Shown here piece by piece: positions 6,060 through 26,109 of a stretch of 32,000 bases of DNA. The position numbers and the translations under genes are program-made. Numbering within the stretch: the stretch's first letter is position 1; each line of letters opens with the position of its first letter. Location: the NCBI GenBank assembly GCA_963718915.1, contig CAVRAI010000003.1, forward strand, positions 600,001 to 632,000. The letters run 5' to 3'. Origin of the DNA: an uncultured Chloroflexia bacterium (GTDB lineage Bacteria > Chloroflexota > Ktedonobacteria > Ktedonobacterales > JADMIN01). The notes below the pieces were generated by a model, which saw nothing but the letters and a program-made list of their open reading frames with translations, was not told the origin of the DNA and ran no database searches.

Positions 6060-6266
6060 GCTGGTTCGTTTGATTTGAATGGGTATGAATGGGGTGAGCC
6101 GGAGGATGGCGCCCTGGCTTCCTGAGAAGGGGAGGCTGGGGCGCTGTTGTGTTTTTGGGGGGCTGTGGCGGGGTGGAAGCGGCAGCGGTCAGTGTGGGGC
6201 CTTTGGGCACGGGAGCGCGGGGGCGGGGGCGCTCAACCCCTTCGGGAGAGCGGGGAGGCAGAAATC

Positions 6267-6758
6267 ATGGGGATTGATATGGATAACGAGCCAGGTGACA
6301 ATCTGGACGAACTTGAGCATAGCCGCGAGGAGCGGGCGTTCACACTCTATTGCCAGGGGATGCGCGTCGCCGAGATCGCGGTGACGCTCGCCGTCAGCGA
6401 GACGACCATCCGCCGCTGGCTGCGCGCCCGGCTGGAGACGCTTGCGCGGGAGGAGCGCGCCGAACGGGCCGAGCAGCTCTTGCGCGCCATCGAGAGCCAG
6501 CGTTCGATTGCCAGCGCCGCCTGGCGAGCTTACGAGCAGGTGCGCAACGACGACGAGCCAGATCGTCACGAGGGCGCGCGCTACCTCTCGATTGCCCTCG
6601 CCGCCCAGCGCGAGGTGGCGCGGTTACAGGGACTCTACTACCGCATCGGACGCGAGCCAGCGCCAGTGGACATCACAGTGACACGTCGCCCCGAGGACAC
6701 AGCCGCGCCAGAGCAGCCTTCCGAGAACGCCAATGGTGAGGCGCGCAAGCAGCCATGA
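6267..6758 (+). CDS. phage terminase small subunit-like HTH protein
   Basis: Start ATG 6267, preceded by GGGGAGG 8 nt upstream. HTH-like ...FTLYCQGMRVAEIAVTLAVSETTIRRWL.... Acidic N-terminus. Stop overlaps the terminase large subunit start (ATGA). The call rests mainly on position and architecture. Confidence 0.6.
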   Translation: MGIDMDNEPGDNLDELEHSREERAFTLYCQGMRVAEIAVTLAVSETTIRRWLRARLETLAREERAERAEQLLRAIESQRSIASAAWRAYEQVRNDDEPDRHEGARYLSIALAAQREVARLQGLYYRIGREPAPVDITVTRRPEDTAAPEQPSENANGEARKQP

Positions 6759-8044
6759 GCCAGTCAGATACGCCTGAGACACCGGGGATAATATGGACGC
6801 TCAATCCGGCGCAGTGGGACTTCGTGCATTGCGCGAGCCGCTTCAGCTTCTACGTCGGCGGGCTGGGCGCGGGCAAGACGACGGCGGGCGCGATGCGGGC
6901 GATCTTGCGCGCCGTCGAATATCCAGGCTCGCTCGGCGTCATCGGCGCGCCAACCTATCCGATGCTGCGCGACGCCACTGCCCGCACATTCTTCGCGCTG
7001 CTGCCACCCTCCCTGATCGCCCGCTACAACAAGACCGAAGGCCATCTCATCCTGCGCAATGGCAGCGAGATCCTCTTCCGCTCGCTCGATGCGCCAGATA
7101 GACTGCGCGGTCTCAATCTCGCCTGGTTCTGGCTGGATGAAGCGCCGCTCTGTGGCTACTATGCCTGGCAGGTGCTCAAAGGGCGGCTGCGCCAGCGCGG
7201 GTATGCCACGGCGGGCTGGGCGACGGGCACGCCAAAGGGGCGCGACGGCTTCGCCCGCGACTTCGAGCTAGCTCAGCGACCCTCCCACGCGCTCTTCCGC
7301 GCCTCCACCTGGACCAACGCGCACAATCTGCCGCCAGACTATATCAGCGAGCTGGGCTATAGCGGCGCGTTCGCGAAGCAGGAGATCGAGGGGCTGTTCG
7401 TCGCCTTCGAGGGGCTGGTCTATACGCTGGACGCAAGCGCGAACGGGCATCTGGCCGAGCCACCGGAGCGCGACCGCTGGCGGCGGGTCATCGGCGGCGT
7501 GGACTGGGGCTACACCAATCCCTCGGCGGCGACTGTCTTCGCACTGGATGGCGATGGTAGCGTCTGGCAGGTGGACGAGTTCTATCAGCGTCGCGCCGGG
7601 CTGGAAGAGACGCTATTGCCCGCGCTGCTGGATCTGACCCGGCGCTATGGTGTCGAGACGTGGTACTGTGGGCCGGATGAGCCGGAGCATATCGACGCGC
7701 TTGCCGCCGCGCTGGCGCGCGAGGGGCTGGCGTCACGGGCGCAACGAGCGGATAACAGTGTGCGCGCGGGCATCCAGACGGTGACGAGCCTGCTGGCACG
7801 CCGCCCCGATGGAAACTATGGGCTGCATATCGCGCCGCGCTGCGTCCACACGATTGCCGAGTACGGCAGCTATCAGTACGCCACCCGCGCCAGCGAGGGC
7901 CGCGATCCCTCGGAGCAGCCGCTCAAACAGAACGATCACGCGCTTGACGCCACCCGCTACGCGCTGCACACCGCGCTGGGCCGCGCCCGCGCCACCACAG
8001 CCTATCTGGACGCGATGCAACGGCGAGGCGGGGAGGGTACTTGA
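6755..8044 (+). CDS. terL: phage terminase large subunit (ATPase + nuclease), apparently intact
   Basis: Walker A GGLGAGKT, Walker B LAWFWLDEA, and RNase H-like nuclease motifs (VIGGVDWGYTNPSA..., ...NDHALDATRYAL). Confidence 0.9.
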   Translation: MSQSDTPETPGIIWTLNPAQWDFVHCASRFSFYVGGLGAGKTTAGAMRAILRAVEYPGSLGVIGAPTYPMLRDATARTFFALLPPSLIARYNKTEGHLILRNGSEILFRSLDAPDRLRGLNLAWFWLDEAPLCGYYAWQVLKGRLRQRGYATAGWATGTPKGRDGFARDFELAQRPSHALFRASTWTNAHNLPPDYISELGYSGAFAKQEIEGLFVAFEGLVYTLDASANGHLAEPPERDRWRRVIGGVDWGYTNPSAATVFALDGDGSVWQVDEFYQRRAGLEETLLPALLDLTRRYGVETWYCGPDEPEHIDALAAALAREGLASRAQRADNSVRAGIQTVTSLLARRPDGNYGLHIAPRCVHTIAEYGSYQYATRASEGRDPSEQPLKQNDHALDATRYALHTALGRARATTAYLDAMQRRGGEGT

Positions 8045-8065: not shown

Positions 8066-8569
8066 CTAATCCCGGTCGGTTGACGCCCTGTTAGGGAGTG
8101 CAAGGGCGTCTTCCAACGCGCTCAGTGGCGCTGGCAGAGGGCCGCGCGTCCAGAGCACAATCCCATCGCGCGCTACGTTCGCAATGAACGTCGAATCCCA
8201 CTCCTGCAACGCGCGCGTGGCAAACATCACCTGCACCTCGCGCGGAGCATCGAGATGCAAATTCCGCGCCAGCCCGACGGTATGGGTAATATCGAGGCCG
8301 CGCGGGAGATACACAGGGTCTTCATCAGTATCGAAGACAGCAAGCAGGTCAACATCGCTCGGCTGCGGATCGCTCAATGGGCGCTCGGTATGGCGCGCAA
8401 CCGAGCCGAACAGCACGATGGCAAGCAAATCAGGATAGCGCTGCGCAAGTGTCGCGATAATATCCCGCACCAGCGCGCTCGACTGCGCTTCCAGCCACGG
8501 CGGAAGCGCTATGTTATCCAGATCACCTGCCGACTTGCTTATTGTTTCAGATATTACGTTGTCGCCCAT
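8066..8569 (-). CDS. nucleotidyltransferase (MNT-type) domain protein
   Basis: LFGSVARHTERPLSDPQPSDVDLLAVF matches the G-S...D-x-D minimal nucleotidyltransferase motif. Overlaps the upstream small gene by 16 nt. Confidence 0.8.
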   Translation of the reverse strand: MGDNVISETISKSAGDLDNIALPPWLEAQSSALVRDIIATLAQRYPDLLAIVLFGSVARHTERPLSDPQPSDVDLLAVFDTDEDPVYLPRGLDITHTVGLARNLHLDAPREVQVMFATRALQEWDSTFIANVARDGIVLWTRGPLPAPLSALEDALALPNRASTDRD

Positions 8570-8895
8570 GTATGAATATCTCCCAGGAGTGTGAGCGCGT
8601 TGGCCACTTTGGTCGCGTCTGGTTCACTACCGTACCAGCCACCTTGGCGTATGCGGTCTAACTGTTCCCAGGCATCGGCGACCGTCGTTTCACCCAGTGA
8701 CCGCAAGAACGTACCCAGACGCGCATGGCTCTCCTGATGTTTGCTGTGTTTCGTCTCACAGCCAAAGGCAACCCAGTGAAACGCTGCGCCCCATGCTCCT
8801 TCGATGATGAGCCGCGCTGCTCGTGGTGATGCGCCAAGCAGGGCTATAGTCGCCTCAATGTTTTCGGCTGCGTTGCGATGGCCATCCGCCAGCAT
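8554..8895 (-). CDS. small all-helical partner of the MNT, HEPN-like (tentative)
   Basis: 113 aa, overlapping the MNT gene on the same strand; His/Arg-rich segment KHSKHQESHARL. I do not see a canonical R-x4-6-H motif, so the HEPN call is weak. Confidence 0.4.
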   Translation of the reverse strand: MLADGHRNAAENIEATIALLGASPRAARLIIEGAWGAAFHWVAFGCETKHSKHQESHARLGTFLRSLGETTVADAWEQLDRIRQGGWYGSEPDATKVANALTLLGDIHTWATT

Positions 8896-9119
8896 ATCGG
8901 CTATTCCTCCCGCTCAGTAAGCAGTATAACACCTGTCCACTGATGAGTTACAAACCATCTTCCCGCCTGTATAACGGTGTCTCAAGCGAGCAACAAATGA
9001 GCCAGACAGCAGAGGCGCTCGAAATCACCTTGTTTCATAGGTGCGGAGTCCAGCCACTGAGGCCGAGAATCATCGCCCACAAGCTACTCTTAGGCTGTCG
9101 AGTTAGCCGAGCAGACAAA

Positions 9120-9954
9120 CTATATGAGAGGAGCCGCGAGGATCAGACGGAAGCCGTCGAAGCCACTTCCACCGCGACCGGAAAAGTAGTCGGGATACGC
9201 CTCGATGCGATAGGCTGCGCGCGCACCCCCAGAGTATTCAGCCCATGAGCCGCCGCGCAGCACTCTATCCCCAGCGGAGTTGGGCGCCTCGCGTCCATCA
9301 CTCGGATTGTAAGGATATGGTTTGATGAGGCTGCTCGTCCACTCGTTGACGTTGCCCGCCATGTCTTGCGCTCCGCACGGGCTGACCCCGCTTGGGTAAG
9401 CGCCCACTGGCGTCGTCGTACGCTTATCACTATCCTTGGTATTGGCGCGCGTCTCATCGAACTTGTCGCCCCAAGGATAAATGCGAGATGCGCGGCCATC
9501 CCATCTCGCGGCTTTCTCCCACTCCGCCTCGGTTGGCAAGCGCCACGGCTGCCCTGTGAGACCGGCAAGCCAGGCGGCGTACGCAGTGGCAGCGAGCCAC
9601 CTCACCGAGACAGCAGGGTGGTCAGGCCGCTGCAACTGCATTTGCCAGTCCACATTGTCGCCTCCAAGTGCTTCGCCTAGACTGCGTCGAGGCTCAGTCT
9701 GACCGCTTCGTAACGAAACAGGCATATTCGGCGACAGTAACCGGGAAACGAGCAATCTGAAAGGCGGGCAGCGTAAGGCGGTGTTGCGGCTGTTCCTCCT
9801 CATAGGCGCGTCTGTCCTTCTTCGGGTCGCTGCCCATCAGAAAGGCGCCTGCCGGTACCGAGCAGACTGGGGGCACGATGACCTCTACACCGTTGAATGT
9901 GTGTGCCTCAAAGCCAAGCTGTGATAGCCGTGGTAGTATTGCCATGACGACCAA
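9120..9954 (-). pseudogene. formylglycine-generating enzyme (FGE/SUMF1) family gene interrupted by a 1-nt frameshift
   Basis: ORF 9694..9954 carries the N-terminal part of the domain (...PAGAFLMGS...[32 protein letters not shown]). ORF 9120..9803 carries the rest (...[21 protein letters not shown]...[14 protein letters not shown]...GNVNEWT...RVLRGGSW...). The two frames meet near 9700. Confidence 0.7.
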
Positions 9955-10259
9955 CCTCCGGCTCGATGAAACTCATCATTGACTATCCTACTATGAGACT
10001 TGCCCGATACCTTAACAAATTACCAATCTGTTTACAATCTAGTGGCTACTGCTGACATATGATCCAGTGGTCAGCAAGTTCGCCGGGATGATGTTCTGGC
10101 AGCGGGGGCGTGGCGTTCAGCCGCCGGGGTTGACGATGACTGATGCGCTGGCGACGCTGACAGCGGCCGAGGCGTTCTTTGGCTTGTTGATCGAGGGCAT
10201 CTTCATCGCGGCGTTCACCCGCCGGGTCACGGGGAACTGAGAGACCTCACCAGGGGTAG

Positions 10260-10490
10260 CTGAGGGATGGTAGAATCCCACGAAAGAAGCGCGATATCAG
10301 GCGTGATTATCGCAAGGCCGACTTCAGCGAGCGACAGGGGAAGGGCGATCATACCGTCTTTCGTCATCCACTGCTTCCTAAAAACTATGCAGTAGATGGC
10401 AGAGATGGTTTGGATGCCCTGCGATACGATGAAGAGAACTTGCGCGACGCCTTGAATGTGCTGGAAAAAGCAAAGAGAAAACAGCCATGA
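10260..10490 (+). CDS. hicA: HicA-like toxin (no canonical start codon in frame)
   Basis: Frame reads ...RKKRDIRRDYRKADFSERQGKGDHTVFRHPLLPKNYAVDGRDGLDALRYDEENLRDAL.... Stop TGA 10488-10490 overlaps the hicB ATG. After the upstream in-frame stop (10257-10259) there is only CTG 10260 or ATC 10275 before the domain. Confidence 0.5.
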   Translation: MRDGRIPRKKRDIRRDYRKADFSERQGKGDHTVFRHPLLPKNYAVDGRDGLDALRYDEENLRDALNVLEKAKRKQP

Positions 10491-17721: not shown

Positions 17722-18216
17722 ATGAGTAAGCGGATGAGCAAACAGGAACTCTACTATAAGGAATATCCTCTGCTTCTCAGCCAGTTAAAACACCTGGTCA
17801 TCCTGGCGCGTGTTCGCGACCCCAACGTAGCGTTCATCACGCTGTTTGGCTCAGCGGCCCGGCTTGAGCCGCATAAAAATAGCGACGCCGATGTCTTGAT
17901 ACTCGTTCACGACCAGACGCAGTTCTATGCCGCGCAGCCAACACCCGGAGTTGCCCTGCTCTGGATGGCCTATCAGGAGGAAGCGGTCAGGAGCGGAGAT
18001 GACGAACGGCTGAGCAACTGGCCTATAACGGCGGTTGTCTCTGATGCCGCCGCTTCCGATCTCGACCACGACTTCCTGAATAACGTCGCCCGTGATGGTG
18101 TGGAATTGTATCGCCAGTCTGGTTATATCCCACCGGAAGCACTCGCCCACCTGATGTCCTGGGAACGGTGGCGACGCCGCATCAACAAACGGTTGGCAAT
18201 TAGCATCGTGAATTAG
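17722..18216 (+). CDS. nucleotidyltransferase (MNT-type) domain protein, solo paralog of 8066..8569
   Basis: LFGSAARLEPHKNSDADVLILV (G-S...D-x-D) and a C-terminal ...DFLNNVARDGVELY, matching ...STFIANVARDGIVLW of the other copy. Confidence 0.7.
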   Translation: MSKRMSKQELYYKEYPLLLSQLKHLVILARVRDPNVAFITLFGSAARLEPHKNSDADVLILVHDQTQFYAAQPTPGVALLWMAYQEEAVRSGDDERLSNWPITAVVSDAAASDLDHDFLNNVARDGVELYRQSGYIPPEALAHLMSWERWRRRINKRLAISIVN

Positions 18217-21327: not shown

Positions 21328-22059
21328 GTGGCACGACTGAATCAGATTATCGCGGTCGAGAAGGGCATCAAGAGCCGCTCGTTCCAGGAACTGACCGAGG
21401 CGCATCAGGCGCTGCAGAAGCCCGCGCAGTTGGCGGGCATCGCGCGCACCTACCGACCCAAGGATGAGGAAGGCGAGACCTTCCCGCCAGAATCGACGCG
21501 AGTGCAGATCAAGGCGGAAGACATCATCCGCCAGACCACCGAGGTGCTGACGAAGCTCTTCGACGCGACGGCTGCCAAAGACTGGACGAACTGCACGGCG
21601 AAGGCCGACGTGGTGGTGGATGGGCAGACCCTGCTGACGCAGGCTCCAGCGACCTATCTGCTCTTCCTGGAGAAGCAACTAGTGGACCTGCATACCTTCG
21701 TGAAGAAGCTTCCGGTGCTGGACGCCTCCGAGACCTGGACCTTCGATGCCTCCGCCGATGCCTGGGCGACCGAGCCGGTGCAGACGGTCAAGACCAAGAA
21801 GCTGCCGCGCAACCACGTCAAGGCTGAGGCGACCGAGAAGCATCCCGCGCAGGTCGAGGTGTACTACGAAGACGTTGTCATCGGCTACTGGCGTACGGTC
21901 AAGTTCTCCGGGGCGCTGCCAGCTCAGCGTGTCAACGAGCTGCTCGACCGGGTGGAGAAGCTACAGCAGGCGGTCAAATACGCCCGCGAGGAAGCGAATA
22001 ACATCGAGGCCGAGGAGCCGAAGGTCGGCGAGCGCATCTTCAACTACCTCTTCGGTTAA
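21328..22059 (+). CDS. hypothetical protein, 243 aa, soluble, helical termini
   Basis: GTG start 21328, strong G/C third-position bias throughout. MARLNQIIAVEKGIKSRS...KFSGALPAQRVNELLDRVEKLQQAVKYAREEA.... No domain I can name. Confidence 0.7.
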   Translation: MARLNQIIAVEKGIKSRSFQELTEAHQALQKPAQLAGIARTYRPKDEEGETFPPESTRVQIKAEDIIRQTTEVLTKLFDATAAKDWTNCTAKADVVVDGQTLLTQAPATYLLFLEKQLVDLHTFVKKLPVLDASETWTFDASADAWATEPVQTVKTKKLPRNHVKAEATEKHPAQVEVYYEDVVIGYWRTVKFSGALPAQRVNELLDRVEKLQQAVKYAREEANNIEAEEPKVGERIFNYLFG

Positions 22060-22140
22060 CGGCTTGCCGCTGCCGAATAGGATGAGATAGACTGCGCAGT
22101 GGAGTGCCAGACTCAATAGCAAATTCAATCTGACGAGAAC

Positions 22141-22216
22141 GGCGTCCCAGTGCAGGTTCGAATCCTGCCCCCACCACCATTCACGGTGGGGTAGCCCAAC
22201 TGGCAGAGGCAGCGTC
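22141..22216 (+). ncRNA. circularly permuted tRNA-like module, 76 nt
   Basis: Order on the + strand: GGCGU | CCCAGU | T-arm GCAGG-TTCGAAT-CCTGC (22152-68) | CCCCACC (22169-75) | A | CCA (22177-79) | TTCAC | GGTGGGG (22185-91) | TA | D-arm GCC-CAACTGGCAGA-GGC (22194-210) | A | GCGTC (22212-16). The last segment pairs with 22141-45. Confidence 0.7.
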
Positions 22217-22397
22217 GCGACTCACCCAACGCTCAAGCTATCACTCCAAACTTGAGTATTCGTCGTCGAACACCAAATCGCTCGCCAGGAGCCGTGAATC
22301 GTTGGATGCGGGCGCATCTCCCGCTCGGTCCTCCAAGCCATGGACCGATAGTTTAATAGTAGAACACGACGATGTAAAGTCTGAGCGCCCGGCATAA

Positions 22398-22442
22398 TAA
22401 ACGTGTTGGTGTGCGCAAATGGGCGACACAACGAGGTCCAGG
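22398..22442 (+). repeat. 45-bp perfect direct repeat, left copy (att-like)
   Basis: TAAACGTGTTGGTGTGCGCAAATGGGCGACACAACGAGGTCCAGG, identical to 23946-23990. Confidence 0.9.
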
Positions 22443-22473
22443 AAAGGGTATTTCCTGGACCTCACCTTTTATT
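22433..22473 (+). terminator. intrinsic terminator (RNA locus, copy 1)
   Basis: GAGGTCCAGGAAA (22433-45), loop GGGTA, TTTCCTGGACCTC (22451-63), then ACCTTTTATT. Confidence 0.8.
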
Positions 22474-22548
22474 GAAGCCTCCGAATCACCTTTAGGCATG
22501 TGCTACGCATTACTGATACCCTCGTCTTCACTACCATAGGCTGTAGAC

Positions 22549-22577
22549 TTTACACTGATGGCGCTTTTGTGTACAAT
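22549..22577 (+). promoter_or_regulatory. sigma-70-like promoter TTTACA-17 nt-TACAAT for the XRE gene
   Basis: -35 TTTACA 22549-54 and -10 TACAAT 22572-77, preceded by TGTG. Lies about 45 nt upstream of ATG 22621. Confidence 0.5.
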
Positions 22578-22620
22578 GGCAGTAGTGGATGATTGCTTTT
22601 GACTGGAACGGAATTCAACT

Positions 22621-22866
22621 ATGCCAACAGATCGCGGTGTGCCAGTGCCATACCTTCGAGAGTGGCGGCTACGGGTATTGCTCAAGCAGGAGGAGCTGGC
22701 CGAAACGGCTGGCGTATCACGGCCGACCATTCTGCGCGGAGAGCGTGGCGAAACATTGAGTATCGACAACATCCGCAAGATTGCTGTCGCGTTAAATATC
22801 ACTGTCGACCAGCTACGATTCGAGCTGCCAGAAGTGGCAGGCCGCCCCAAGAATGACCCACTATAG
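22621..22866 (+). CDS. XRE-family helix-turn-helix regulator
   Basis: ...LREWRLRVLLKQEELAETAGVSRPTILRGERGETLSIDNIRKIAVALNITVDQL... is an HTH_XRE pattern. Confidence 0.85.
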   Translation: MPTDRGVPVPYLREWRLRVLLKQEELAETAGVSRPTILRGERGETLSIDNIRKIAVALNITVDQLRFELPEVAGRPKNDPL

Positions 22867-22974
22867 CCGCTTGAACCAGGTGAGGAAGAACATCGCTTGC
22901 GTCGTACATCGTAGTCGGATCAATACAGGCAGCCACGACTATTGTGCTTGAGACGGTATCTGGAGGGCTAACTC

Positions 22975-23910
22975 ATGAGTACCAGCGATAACCAGAGCGA
23001 CCAGAGCGACCAGAGCGATAGCTTCAGTCTGGAAGAGTTCGATGCGCAGGCATCTGGCAGAATCCGACATATCATGTATAACGGAGAGCCGTGGTACTCC
23101 GTGATTGATGTCGTGGGAGTGCTCACCGATGCGCCCAAGCCACGCCAATATTGGTTTGACATGAAACGCAATGTTCAAAATGAAGGCTTCCGTGAACTGT
23201 CGGAAAAAATCCGACAGTTGAAAATGGAGGCGCCCGATGGGAAACAACGTCTGACCGACGCCGCCAACGAAGAAACACTTTTGCGCATCATCGAGAGCAT
23301 CCCCAGCCCCAAAGCCGAACCGTTCAAGCGCTGGTTGGCGCGTGTCGGCCACGAACGCCTGCGGGAAATGGAGAACCCCGAACTAGCCGCTGATCGCATG
23401 CGCGCGCAGTATCGTCGCCTCGGCTACAGCGATGAGTGGATCGACCGACGCTTGCAAGGCATTGTGGTGCGTGACGAGTTGACCAACGAATGGCGCGAGC
23501 GCGGCGCCAGGGAGGGCAAGGAGTTTGCGACGCTGACTGATACACTCCAGCAGGGTACGTTCGATCTCACCACCGCTGAGCACAAAGGCGTGAAGCATAT
23601 TGGGCAGCGGCAGAATCTCCGTGACTCAATGACGACGCTTGAACTCGCCTTGACGATTCTCGCCGAGGAAACCGCTAAGGAGTTGCACCAGGTGCATGAC
23701 AGCGAGGGCTTCGACGAGCTTCATCAAGACACGCAAGAGGCGGGAGATGTGGGTGGCGCTGCGCGGCGCGACATTGAGGCGCGCACCGGTCGCCCCGTCG
23801 TGAGTAGCGAAAACTACAAGGCACTCCGCCAGGGCAGACAGCGCGAACTGCAAAGCCCGCTGTTTCCATCAGGTGATGCGAACAACGGCGGAGGCGAGGG
23901 CAGCGAGTGA
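22975..23910 (+). CDS. Bro-N domain protein (prophage antirepressor / DinD-like)
   Basis: ...IRHIMYNGEPWYSVIDVVGVLTDAPKPRQYWFDMK...RIIESIPSPKAEPFKRWLARVGHERLRE...NLRDSMTTLEL... shows a Bro-N core followed by a conserved C-terminal region. The N-terminus holds an SDQ tandem repeat. Confidence 0.8.
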   Translation: MSTSDNQSDQSDQSDSFSLEEFDAQASGRIRHIMYNGEPWYSVIDVVGVLTDAPKPRQYWFDMKRNVQNEGFRELSEKIRQLKMEAPDGKQRLTDAANEETLLRIIESIPSPKAEPFKRWLARVGHERLREMENPELAADRMRAQYRRLGYSDEWIDRRLQGIVVRDELTNEWRERGAREGKEFATLTDTLQQGTFDLTTAEHKGVKHIGQRQNLRDSMTTLELALTILAEETAKELHQVHDSEGFDELHQDTQEAGDVGGAARRDIEARTGRPVVSSENYKALRQGRQRELQSPLFPSGDANNGGGEGSE

Positions 23911-23945
23911 TACCACGAATCGCCAGGCGCCAGAGCCGGACGGAG

Positions 23946-23990
23946 TAAACGTGTTGGTGTGCGCAAATGGGCGACACAACGAGGTCCAGG
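23946..23990 (+). repeat. 45-bp perfect direct repeat, right copy (att-like)
   Basis: Identical to 22398-22442. Sequence diverges immediately after, but still folds into a terminator hairpin. Confidence 0.9.
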
Positions 23991-24020
23991 GAAGGATACT
24001 CTCTGGATCTCACTTTTTCC
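23981..24020 (+). terminator. intrinsic terminator (copy 2, after the right direct repeat)
   Basis: GAGGTCCAGGGA (23981-92) pairs with TCTCTGGATCTC (24000-11): 12 bp including two G.U. Then ACTTTTTCC. Sits tail-to-tail with the ADH gene. Confidence 0.7.
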
Positions 24021-24026
24021 TACTAT

Positions 24027-25139
24027 TTACTCCCCAAACACCAGCACGCCGCGTCCTGTCGTTCCCGCCCGCAGCGCATCGAGCGCCTCGTTGACCGCGT
24101 CGAGTGGATAGCGCTGCGCCACCAGTTCATCCAGCTTGAGGCGGCCGCTGCGATAGAGGCTGAGCGCGCGTGGCACATCCACCCGCGGGATCGAGGAGCC
24201 GAAGATGCAGCCCTTGAGCGTCTTCTCGCTCAGGAAGTCGGCGCGCAGCGGCACGGTCACGTTCTGTGGCGTCAGCCCCACCGCGACGGCTGTCCCGCCG
24301 GGCGCGAGACACTCCCACGCCTGCGCGACGGTCTCTGGCCTGCCGACCACCTCGAAGCTATAGTCCACACCACCGCCGGTCATCTGGCGTATCACCTTCG
24401 CCGGATTGCTGTTCGCCGGGTCACTGGCGTCCACCGTATCGGTCGCGCCGAACTGGCGGGCCATTGCAAGCGCCGCCGGACGCATATCCACCGCAATAAT
24501 GCGCGCCGCGCCAACCAGTGCCGCTCCCTGGATGACGTTGAGGCCGACGCCGCCCGCGCCGATGACGGCGACGACGCTGCCTGGCTCCACGCGCGCCGTG
24601 CGGGTGACCGCGCCGAGGCCCGTCAGCACGCCGCAGCCAATGAGCGAGGCGACTTCCAAGGGAATATCGGCGGCTATCGGGATGACGCCTTCCTCGCGCA
24701 CGAGCACGTGTTCGGCGAACGCGCCCGCATCGAGCAGCTGGTGGATGCCCTCACCCTCGGCATCATGCAGGCGTCGCCGTATCGCGCCACTGCCGCGCTC
24801 GACGCCCTGGCGGTTGTTGCAGAGCGCCGGTCGTCCGGTGGCGCAGTAGCGACAGTGGCCGCAACTGGGAATCCAGGTGAGCACGACGTGATCGCCCGGT
24901 GCGACGCTCGTCACCTGCGGCCCAACGCGCTCGACGATCCCCGCGCCCTCGTGGCCGAGCACGACGGGTAGCGCATGCTTGAAGACCGGGCTAATCATAT
25001 GCAGGTCGGAGTGACAGACGCCACAGGCCGCCAGCCGCACAACCACCTCTCCCGGCTCCGGATCATCCAGGGTAATCTCTTCCACCGTCAGCGGTGTCTC
25101 ATAGTTGCGCAGCACCGCTGCGCGCGTCTGTATGGGCAT
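24027..25139 (-). CDS. zinc-dependent alcohol dehydrogenase family protein (class III / formaldehyde-dehydrogenase-like)
   Basis: ...VRLAACGVCHSDLH...VLGHEGAGIVERVG...CGHCRYCATGRPALC...VIGAGGVGLNVIQGA... gives catalytic and structural Zn ligands plus a Rossmann GxGxxG. Confidence 0.9.
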   Translation of the reverse strand: MPIQTRAAVLRNYETPLTVEEITLDDPEPGEVVVRLAACGVCHSDLHMISPVFKHALPVVLGHEGAGIVERVGPQVTSVAPGDHVVLTWIPSCGHCRYCATGRPALCNNRQGVERGSGAIRRRLHDAEGEGIHQLLDAGAFAEHVLVREEGVIPIAADIPLEVASLIGCGVLTGLGAVTRTARVEPGSVVAVIGAGGVGLNVIQGAALVGAARIIAVDMRPAALAMARQFGATDTVDASDPANSNPAKVIRQMTGGGVDYSFEVVGRPETVAQAWECLAPGGTAVAVGLTPQNVTVPLRADFLSEKTLKGCIFGSSIPRVDVPRALSLYRSGRLKLDELVAQRYPLDAVNEALDALRAGTTGRGVLVFGE

Positions 25140-25185: not shown

Positions 25186-26109
25186 TCACGTCCGATACAG
25201 CCACGGCGTATTTATCAAGTCGTCAAGTTGAGCTTCGACATCAGCGAGTTGCTGCATCGTCAAATTCAGGTCTGACAACCAATCTCGCTTGTAATAACCT
25301 GGCGCATCTCCCTCGGCAATGCCACGCTGAACCGCATCGAGGTCATAGATCTGCCGCGTGATTTTCGCACGGGCCTGCTCTAGTCCATCCAGCAGACGAT
25401 TGCGGTATCTGTCCATATCGGATTTGACCCGGTAGACAGAGGGCGAAGCCCTCTGAGAATCGTTAGTCTCTGCCTCTCCAGATCGAGCGCCATTCCCAGC
25501 GCCTTCTTTACTCTCATCAGCTAATACGGCGGCCAGAGGTTCGTGTGGCTGATAACGCCATTCTGAACTCCGGGACCATGGTTCCGCAAGCTGACGTTCC
25601 AGCCATTCCTCAAGCGTATCTGCGCCGAAGCTGAACGTGGGGCCATTCCACTCGTCACCCTCGTAGATATCATCACGGATATAAATGTGTCCCGTGAAGC
25701 CATCGAGGTAAGCACAGACATTACAACCAAGGAGGGCAAACTCTACAAAGCCCATCGGTATGTGGGGACAAGTCACATACGCTCCGGGATGCGCGCGTAA
25801 AGCCTCAACCGTTGCGTCATCTAACACCCGAGGCCCATCACCGATAGTTTCACCCAAGATGGGGTAATTTAGGTGCGTCCTGGCGAAATCATCAAAGATA
25901 GTGAAAAAGCTGTACCCTGGCCCGAAAAAGTTGCTGCCGTTGGCGACAGTCATGTACAGTTCACGCAGCATCGGTGGAAGCTTGAATCCAAGGCGCTCCT
26001 CGCAGGCCTGAATCTCTGCTTCAGTGGCGCGCGGGAACAGCAGGCCCTCACCGATGTATACCGCATGCGCCCGCATGCGCTCGCATATCGTGCTGAAACT
26101 CAGGCTCAT
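25186..26109 (-). CDS. SMI1/KNR4 (SUKH-type) family protein with a helical C-terminal extension
   Basis: ...ATEAEIQACEERLGFKLPPMLRELYMTVANGSNFFGPGY... is the characteristic SMI1_KNR4 opening. Confidence 0.75.
   Translation of the reverse strand: MSLSFSTICERMRAHAVYIGEGLLFPRATEAEIQACEERLGFKLPPMLRELYMTVANGSNFFGPGYSFFTIFDDFARTHLNYPILGETIGDGPRVLDDATVEALRAHPGAYVTCPHIPMGFVEFALLGCNVCAYLDGFTGHIYIRDDIYEGDEWNGPTFSFGADTLEEWLERQLAEPWSRSSEWRYQPHEPLAAVLADESKEGAGNGARSGEAETNDSQRASPSVYRVKSDMDRYRNRLLDGLEQARAKITRQIYDLDAVQRGIAEGDAPGYYKRDWLSDLNLTMQQLADVEAQLDDLINTPWLYRT

Follow-up and report, generated by a model that had tools for sequence, protein, structure and literature searches.

A 1.5-kb islet without a recombinase between two copies of the 3′ end of a structured RNA gene in a Ktedonobacterales bacterium

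How a small block of genes can come to lie between two exact copies of the end of an RNA gene, with no recombination gene nearby, is the question raised by a locus of an uncultured Chloroflexia bacterium (Ktedonobacterales; JADMIN01). The stretch analysed, hereafter the window, comprises 32,000 nucleotides (assembly GCA_963718915.1, contig CAVRAI010000003.1, positions 600,001 to 632,000), and coordinates refer to its forward strand unless stated otherwise. A gene encoding a DUF7873 protein is followed by a structured non-coding RNA gene of about 370 nt (22100–22470). The 3′ end of this gene adjoins an islet with two cargo genes, and the islet is closed by a second copy of the RNA 3′ end next to a Zn-dependent alcohol dehydrogenase (ADH) gene (24027–25139, reverse strand; Pfam assignment), which serves as the syntenic anchor of the right flank. 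The reading we favour, to which about an even chance is given, is a Campbell-type insertion that left a surrogate RNA 3′ end, brought about by a recombinase acting in trans or since lost. The product would resemble the cis-mobilisable elements (CIMEs) described for other bacteria.

The two 45-mers at 22398–22442 and 23946–23990 are identical by direct comparison of the window sequence, as an earlier sequence-only reading had stated. They are the only two copies in the window when up to three mismatches are allowed, with none expected from 100 shuffles, and the repeats are thus not due to chance. Their spacing is 1548 bp. By convention, the insert is taken as the 1548 bp from 22443 to 23990; its unique interior, 22443–23945, is absent from the related locus L003. 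Ungapped extension places the pair within an 87-nt repeat (22384–22470 versus 23932–24018, 85% identity), in which the copies diverge on both sides of the perfect core, with 9 of 15 positions matching upstream and 21 of 28 downstream. With diverged homology on both sides of the core, the repeat does not look like a target-site duplication. A perfect core within two-sided diverged homology points instead to an exchange between two RNA ends that had already diverged, and the crossover point would lie within 22398–22442.

Beyond the core, both copies run into a terminator hairpin followed by a T-run, and the hairpins are diverged and still pairing, as had been claimed. The hairpin of copy 1 (22433–22463) consists of 13 Watson–Crick pairs (−24.4 kcal/mol), and that of copy 2 (23981–24011) of 12 pairs including two G·U (−20.0 kcal/mol). 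Copy 2 as a whole (23932–24018) is a displaced 3′ fragment of the RNA, detected as a second nhmmer match to positions 300–385 of the RNA model. It is made up of a diverged stub (23932–23945), the core, the hairpin and its T-run, and it is positioned where a terminator of the cargo operon would be expected. In copy 1, the segment at 22443–22476, which comprises the distal half of the terminal hairpin with its 13 Watson–Crick pairs, the T-run and the motif ATTGAA, probably represents an element-borne surrogate for the RNA 3′ end.

The RNA gene itself is intact despite the insertion: nhmmer aligns it to the model end to end, over model positions 3–383. Its consensus fold, derived from 33 sequences, contains 72 pairs in 12 helices, with 96.2% of the cells paired versus 40–49% in slid-partner controls. 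Changes on both sides of the pair are found at 59 of the 72 pairs, a value equalled by none of 500 shuffles, and the covariation is very strong. The 45-nt block is the most conserved part of the molecule. It contains the 3′ strands of helix 6 (22406–22411, partner 22271–22276) and helix 5 (22422–22427, partner 22262–22267), a conserved GCGCAAAUGG loop and the 5′ half of the terminal hairpin, and its bases pair with partners 130–160 nt upstream, with covariation. Because the 45-mer supplies strands of long-range helices, it is an essential segment of this molecule and no generic terminator. The proposal that an RNA gene ends at copy 1 is borne out by this conserved, covarying RNA, of which the 45-mer forms the functional 3′ portion. 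Upstream, a promoter-like sequence, TTGCCG-18 nt-TAGACT, can be read at 22064–22093 and may drive the RNA; a TAnAnT element at the corresponding position is kept in the Chloroflexota rows of both RNA alignments (A1 and A2).

No transfer RNA (tRNA) or transfer-messenger RNA (tmRNA) gene was detected in the window by ARAGORN, and the match to the Rfam tRNA model reached 16.9 bits against a gathering score of 29. At the gathering threshold, no Rfam family was found in the window or in seven further loci scanned (Streptomyces, Rhodococcus, Deinococcales and phage copies). When the thresholds were relaxed, two weak matches to YrlA (RF02553) appeared in the 330 nt that precede copy 1, at 22151–22210 (23.1 bits, E-value 0.064) and 22303–22366 (17.1 bits), both below the gathering score of 69. 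The matches fall on two tRNA-like modules, so that a domain composed of a T-arm, a closed acceptor stem and a D-arm is present twice in the RNA, each time with covariation. Module 1 (22152–22210) consists of a T-arm (22152–22168), a closed acceptor hairpin (22169–22191) whose loop starts with ACCA (22176–22179), and a D-arm (22194–22210), and corresponds to covarying helices 2–4. Module 2 (22308–22365) is formed by a T-arm (22308–22324), an acceptor hairpin (22325–22348) with a loop starting with TCCA (22332–22335), and a D-arm (22351–22365), and corresponds to covarying helices 9–11. In alignment A2, an N-CCA start of the acceptor loop directly after the 3′ acceptor strand is seen in 10 of 33 sequences for module 1 (11 if a row with CACCA, offset by one base, is counted) and in 17 of 33 for module 2; loop 1 begins with A in 30 of 33. 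The N-CCA loops may be inherited from a tRNA ancestor, or could reflect processing within the loop as in permuted or two-piece tRNA-like RNAs.

The closest described counterparts are YrlA and the bacterial Y RNAs (Rfam RF02553; PMC4201824). The order of T-arm, closed acceptor stem and D-arm is the same, each module is enclosed by a long-range helix in both, and both occur in phages. By contrast, YrlA has one module and the RNA described here has two, with acceptor loops of 4–39 nt that often start with NCCA. The partner genes differ as well: YrlA is associated with Ro60/Rsr, a TROVE-domain protein, and the present RNA with DUF7873. No TROVE domain was found among the window open reading frames (ORFs) scanned.

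A comparison with related loci reveals the same site with and without cargo. In L003, a contig from a metagenome-assembled genome (MAG) at NCBI, DUF7873 is followed by the RNA, one identical 45-mer, a hairpin and directly by ADH. L003 is an empty site in another species: its DUF7873 is 97% identical to that of the window at the protein level and 88.9% at the nucleotide level, and its ADH gene 85% at the nucleotide level. A second locus, L091, contains an identical 45-mer within an RNA end that is 97.5% identical to that of the window. Its tail (...CCTGGACCTCACCTTTTATTGAA) matches copy 1 at 31 of 34 positions versus 23 of 34 for copy 2, and the ending ...CACCTTTTATTGAA is common to L091 and copy 1. 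Beyond this tail, L091 has an AbiEi/AbiEii pair where the window has its two cargo genes. A search from the ADH side yielded L096, in which ADH (95% identical) is flanked by a degenerate RNA 3′ fragment that matches 23 of the last 28 core positions and has a hairpin identical to that of L091; unrelated membrane-protein genes lie upstream of the fragment. The interval between the RNA and ADH is, therefore, empty in L003, occupied by the islet in the window, and bordered by other genes at one junction each in L091 and L096. Of two further ADH loci, L094 contains insertion sequence (IS) elements and, like L097, has no RNA near ADH.

The islet differs from its surroundings in composition, with a guanine-plus-cytosine (G+C) fraction of 0.48–0.55 in its left half versus 0.62–0.70 in the flanks. 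As had been noted from the sequence, its interior holds a strong promoter and two genes. There is no room for a further gene. The promoter, of the sigma-70 type (TTTACA-17-TACAAT at 22549–22577, 10 of 12 matches), precedes the cargo operon. The first gene (22621–22866) encodes an XRE-family regulator of 81 aa (HTH_3, E-value 5e-12) that matches 'control protein' models of PADLOC. The second (22975–23910) encodes a Bro-N/DinD-like protein of 311 aa (Bro-N, E-value 2.8e-11). The Bro-N part of the original description, 'Bro-N antirepressor-like', holds, and 'antirepressor' is too specific: residues 24–290 match positions 9–275 of the 286-position PADLOC profile PDC-S13 with an E-value of 2.6e-103. 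The best PHROG match is phrog_15286 (E-value 1.4e-74, function unknown), and the match to the Ant family phrog_2899 is limited to the N-terminus (E-value 3.6e-4). The likeness to characterised antirepressors does not extend beyond the Bro-N domain, and no relative was found in the PDB. Homologs are labelled 'DNA-damage-inducible protein D' at JGI, and our literature search returned no paper mentioning PDC-S13. On the strength of the profile match, a defence function is a candidate role for this cargo, which is typical of defence islets.

Homologs of the Bro-N protein with 60–87% identity are common in Ktedonobacterales, in varied contexts. The DNA homology of the cassette to relatives is limited to the Bro-N gene, and BLAST of the cassette against plasmids and phages likewise returned Bro-N homology only. 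In L005, a 390-aa homolog, 87% identical, lies downstream of a helix-turn-helix protein with 56% identity to the XRE regulator of the window. Because L005 holds both homologs, the pairing of an XRE-type regulator with a Bro-N effector is recurrent. Between positions 6750 and 16011 of this locus, the XRE homolog, three small ORFs and the Bro-N homolog are found, the last separated by about 0.9 kb from a complete type I restriction–modification system that follows it; L005 is a defence-island context for the PDC-S13 family.

These observations can be accommodated in a single event. The 1,548-bp islet would have entered the chromosome by one reciprocal, Campbell-type crossover between the last ~90 nt of the resident RNA gene and a diverged version of this end, ~87 nt long, on an incoming circular DNA, with the exchange falling inside the 45-nt block. 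Copy 1 would then consist of the native upstream part, the core, and the foreign tail with the start of the cargo, and copy 2 of the end of the cargo with a foreign stub, the core, and the native tail with ADH next to it. The scheme for copy 2 is supported by synteny with L003 and L096, and that for copy 1 by the tail in common with L091. The resident RNA, with its 5′ 300 nt and core, would now end in the incoming half-hairpin and T-run, which leaves the 13 pairs intact; the native 3′ fragment would have been displaced 1.5 kb downstream beside ADH, where it lacks partners to pair with and seems to act solely as the cargo operon's terminator. The catalyst would most likely have been a site-specific recombinase, in trans or since lost, making the islet a CIME-like element at a local hot spot. 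The lower G+C of the left half, the strong promoter of its own and the defence-type cargo count for an insertion. The junction of the empty site is predicted to read ...GGCATAA, core, GGAAGGATACTCTCTGGATCTCACTTTTTCCTAC, and that of the circle ...GAGCCGGACGGAG, core, AAAGGGTATTTCCTGGACCTCACCTTTTATTGAAGCC; the string GGACCTCACCTTTTATTGAA is a probe for further copies alongside the 45-mer.

Several results weigh against such an insertion. In agreement with the sequence-only reading, no integrase or transposase domain is present in the 29 largest ORFs of the window, the islet included. No integrase was found among the 25 listed of 86 families matched by the 119 nearest ORFs downstream of the RNA in ~70 RNA-bearing species, and no recombinase in any related locus examined. 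Viral contigs gave no match to a 21-mer of the core, and neither an attP-bearing parent nor a cognate integrase-bearing element for this attachment (att) site was found there, in the window or downstream of the RNA in those species. A 26-mer of the core has a single match in metagenome contigs, L091; the loci of Bro-N homologs (L005–L009, L098–L110) contain no RNA fragment, and the complete cassette is seen only in its own genome. Neither L091 nor L096 extends to the opposite junction, and no second complete islet is documented. L003, for its part, belongs to a different species, so that gain in the window and loss in L003 are indistinguishable, and the two hairpin tails are equally distant from its own (25 of 28 positions for copy 1, 24 of 28 for copy 2). 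The expected order of one 45-mer, a hairpin and then ADH is seen in this locus of another species, whose tail is not assignable to copy 2. An attempt to pick the native terminator by sequence was dropped, as 24 against 25 matches means little where the genomes are only 85–91% identical. Since tail identity to L003 does not discriminate, the distinction between native and surrogate tail rests on synteny; the claim of a surrogate 3′ end is upheld in that the RNA is rebuilt at full length with 13 pairs, and the identity of the tail that acts as surrogate stays tentative.

Two further candidates were considered and set aside. A Logan contig of 1563 nt (L090) corresponds to window positions 22413–23975, and each of its ends comprises 30 nt of the repeat. 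It was rejected as an excision circle and is better read as a unitig cut where the repeat branches the assembly graph; it is uninformative either way on excision. The notion that the RNA is a general integration hot spot was also rejected, as the 119 downstream ORFs are assorted housekeeping genes and, among the ~70 species compared, the RNA 3′ end is repeated only in the cyanobacterial locus L030.

The sequence-only reading had offered a decayed remnant or a minimal cassette mobilised in trans, and had omitted host homologous recombination without any integrase, with the conserved RNA 3′ segment serving as portable homology. This alternative is clearly less probable, although it deserves serious attention. 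The cassette could loop out between the repeats by RecA-type recombination and re-enter an RNA-bearing genome by a single crossover, or the cargo could be swapped by a double crossover in which the RNA gene and the fragment on the ADH side provide the arms. Such a process would resemble that of the 'minimal mobile elements' of Neisseria, in which variable cargo lies between conserved anchors with no visible mobilisation machinery, and of the core defence hot spots of Pseudomonas. For RecA to recombine efficiently, the 45 nt available are close to the lower limit, and a circle of 1.5 kb would need a delivery route. In favour of host recombination, the islet, the window ORFs scanned and the listed downstream families yielded no recombinase; the core is identical between species that are only ~89% identical, which provides 45 nt of perfect homology, and the homology continues past the core on both sides. 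Different cargo is found between the same anchors in related contigs, and defence hot spots without identifiable mobilisation are reported in PMC10121019, which refers to the P. aeruginosa study PMC10250203. On the other hand, the ATTGAA tail at two junctions with different cargo looks more like a conserved att arm than random homology, and no such duplication was seen in ~70 other RNA-bearing species.

An origin without any mobile element is improbable. In that case, the RNA gene or its 3′ end would have been duplicated locally, and the second copy later replaced or split by unrelated DNA through illegitimate recombination to leave the 87-nt stub. Tandem RNA copies do exist, as two complete diverged paralogs in L014 and within a 1.4-kb duplication that includes the RNA 3′ end in L030. 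However, the L014 paralogs are strongly diverged and the cores in the window identical, and a perfect core with two-sided divergence fits a crossover of two alleles, not a decaying duplicate. The tail of copy 1 next to different cargo in L091, and the lower G+C and own promoter of the insert, also speak against it. The remaining possibility, that the 45-mer and its hairpin are a dispersed terminator or a module like the repetitive extragenic palindromes (REP) that stands by chance after two transcription units, is effectively refuted, and we regard it as extremely improbable. Both copies end in working-looking terminators; yet just two copies occur in 32 kb, all other occurrences found of the 45-mer are 3′ ends of a single RNA family that follows DUF7873, contrary to what would be seen of a dispersed terminator, and its bases covary with their upstream partners. 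Given the lack of a recombinase in the islet, the window ORFs scanned and the vicinity of the RNA elsewhere, the CIME-like insertion is ranked first, at the modest level given above, followed by host homologous recombination, local duplication and the dispersed terminator.

That elements integrate at the 3′ ends of tRNA and tmRNA genes is standard knowledge, and the islet shares many traits with the islands and prophages that insert there by means of tyrosine integrases. In both, the 3′ end of a structured RNA is the source of the repeats, the target is rebuilt by element-borne sequence, an empty site is present in a relative, and one site accommodates different cargos of the defence type. The islet differs from them in its small size (only 1.5 kb) and in its target, an RNA of ~370 nt with two tRNA-like modules in which the crossover would fall in the 3′ helices that are not tRNA-like. 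On two points it departs from classical integrative elements: an integrase is lacking, and the target gene encodes neither a tRNA nor a tmRNA. The type of event, a crossover in a gene with a surrogate end supplied, is familiar, and the type of target is new. According to PMC10121019, which cites Williams 2002 and 2003, tRNA and tmRNA 3′ ends are the classic att sites for many defence-carrying elements.

CIMEs, as described for families of integrative and conjugative elements of Firmicutes, have kept attL and attR and have lost their integration and transfer genes (PMC6323972). Att-like flanking repeats, small cargo and the lack of recombination and transfer genes are also features of the islet, the differences being a host from Chloroflexota and the lack of a cognate integrase-bearing element in the searches described. 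With the core defence hot spots of P. aeruginosa (PMC10250203) and the hot spots of E. coli (PMC10121019), the islet has in common variable defence cargo, conserved anchors and no visible mobilisation. At the present site, this cargo is the PDC-S13 candidate in the window and AbiE in L091. In contrast to those hot spots, one anchor of the islet is present twice, in the form of a perfect 45-nt direct repeat that stems from an RNA gene, an arrangement that speaks for single-crossover insertion more than for simple replacement between core genes.

The partner gene of the RNA (21328–22059) encodes a full-length DUF7873 protein of 243 aa (Pfam PF25283, E-value 1e-116). Relatives with 73–97% identity are spread across phyla, in Chloroflexota, Actinomycetota, Cyanobacteria, Deinococcales, Armatimonadota, Polyangiaceae and Blastocatellia. 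When searched with a profile of the non-coding region, 74 of 80 species loci, which span at least seven phyla, have the RNA immediately downstream of DUF7873, as do all 27 full-length viral loci from IMG/VR (L111–L137). The RNA is also found in Arthrobacter phage Mimi (L092, 3269–3600) and Gordonia phage Keelan (L093, 3725–4044). No match to DUF7873 was obtained in PDB, PHROG, PADLOC or NCBIfam, and its AlphaFold2 model is poor, with a mean predicted local distance difference test score of 60 and a predicted template modelling score of 0.48. Our literature searches yielded no paper on DUF7873 and, by keyword, no description of such an RNA; the two may constitute an undescribed ribonucleoprotein.

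The loci that bear on this module are window positions 21328–22470, L001–L004 and L010–L089. In Mimi and Keelan, the module has its place beside or among the phage tRNA genes, where annotation of it is either missing or consists of small 'hypothetical' ORFs, and DUF7873 is encoded in 75 GenBank phage records at ~46–54% identity (Arthrobacter, Gordonia, Vibrio, Rhizobium, Klebsiella, Serratia and others). In Herpetosiphon (L018–L020) and in L016 and L032, DUF7873 is present with no RNA detectable within 10 kb; the ORF that follows it in H. aurantiacus, from about 10883, looks like an ADP-ribosylglycohydrolase by eye only. The tandem RNA copies of L014, a Ktedonobacterales MAG, are located at 6113–6538 and 6775–7100, with an extra 212-aa ORF between DUF7873 and the first copy. 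In L030 (Dapis sp.), the tandem segmental duplication of ~1.4 kb (8424–9120 versus 9848–10400) starts inside the RNA 3′ end, with 61 nt at 92% identity and several further blocks; it is superficially like the repeats of the window, with the whole downstream segment doubled.

Other features of the window were recorded in passing. A gene of the SUKH-1/SMI1-KNR4 family (25186–26109, reverse strand), with a low G+C of 0.51–0.55, lies between ADH and a flavin adenine dinucleotide (FAD) amine-oxidase gene. The ADH and FAD amine-oxidase genes adjoin directly in L094, L095, L096 and L097, and the SUKH gene is a second insertion specific to the strain, on the opposite flank of ADH from the islet; it seems to have taken the old ADH upstream region (CATGGGGAT...). 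A pair of genes like those for the small and large terminase subunits (6147–8044, forward strand), with a Terminase_5 helix-turn-helix and with Terminase_6N/6C, is possibly a prophage remnant; no other phage structural genes were recognisable among the window ORFs scanned. Two small genes for nucleotidyltransferases of the Pol-beta type, at 8066–8569 (reverse strand) and 17722–18216 (forward strand), are possibly of the MNT type of toxin–antitoxin pairs.

The target RNA is recognised by no annotation pipeline or Rfam model, and such islets are, therefore, invisible to tRNA-anchored island finders. With a recombinase-free islet in the window and other defence cargo apparently at the site in relatives, the locus provides a small, tractable case for how such cassettes move. 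A bolder and rather doubtful extension would take the DUF7873-linked RNA as the RNA half of an undescribed ribonucleoprotein in many phyla and large phages, whose invariant 3′ end in Ktedonobacterales is a landing pad for recombinase-free defence cassettes (XRE/PDC-S13, AbiE and others) that bring a surrogate RNA end and are moved by host recombination or an unlinked recombinase. If true, it would establish att sites of a new class and perhaps also a new strategy of mobility that needs no integrase. The RNA tied to DUF7873 in bacteria and phages may be a more important lead than the islet itself.

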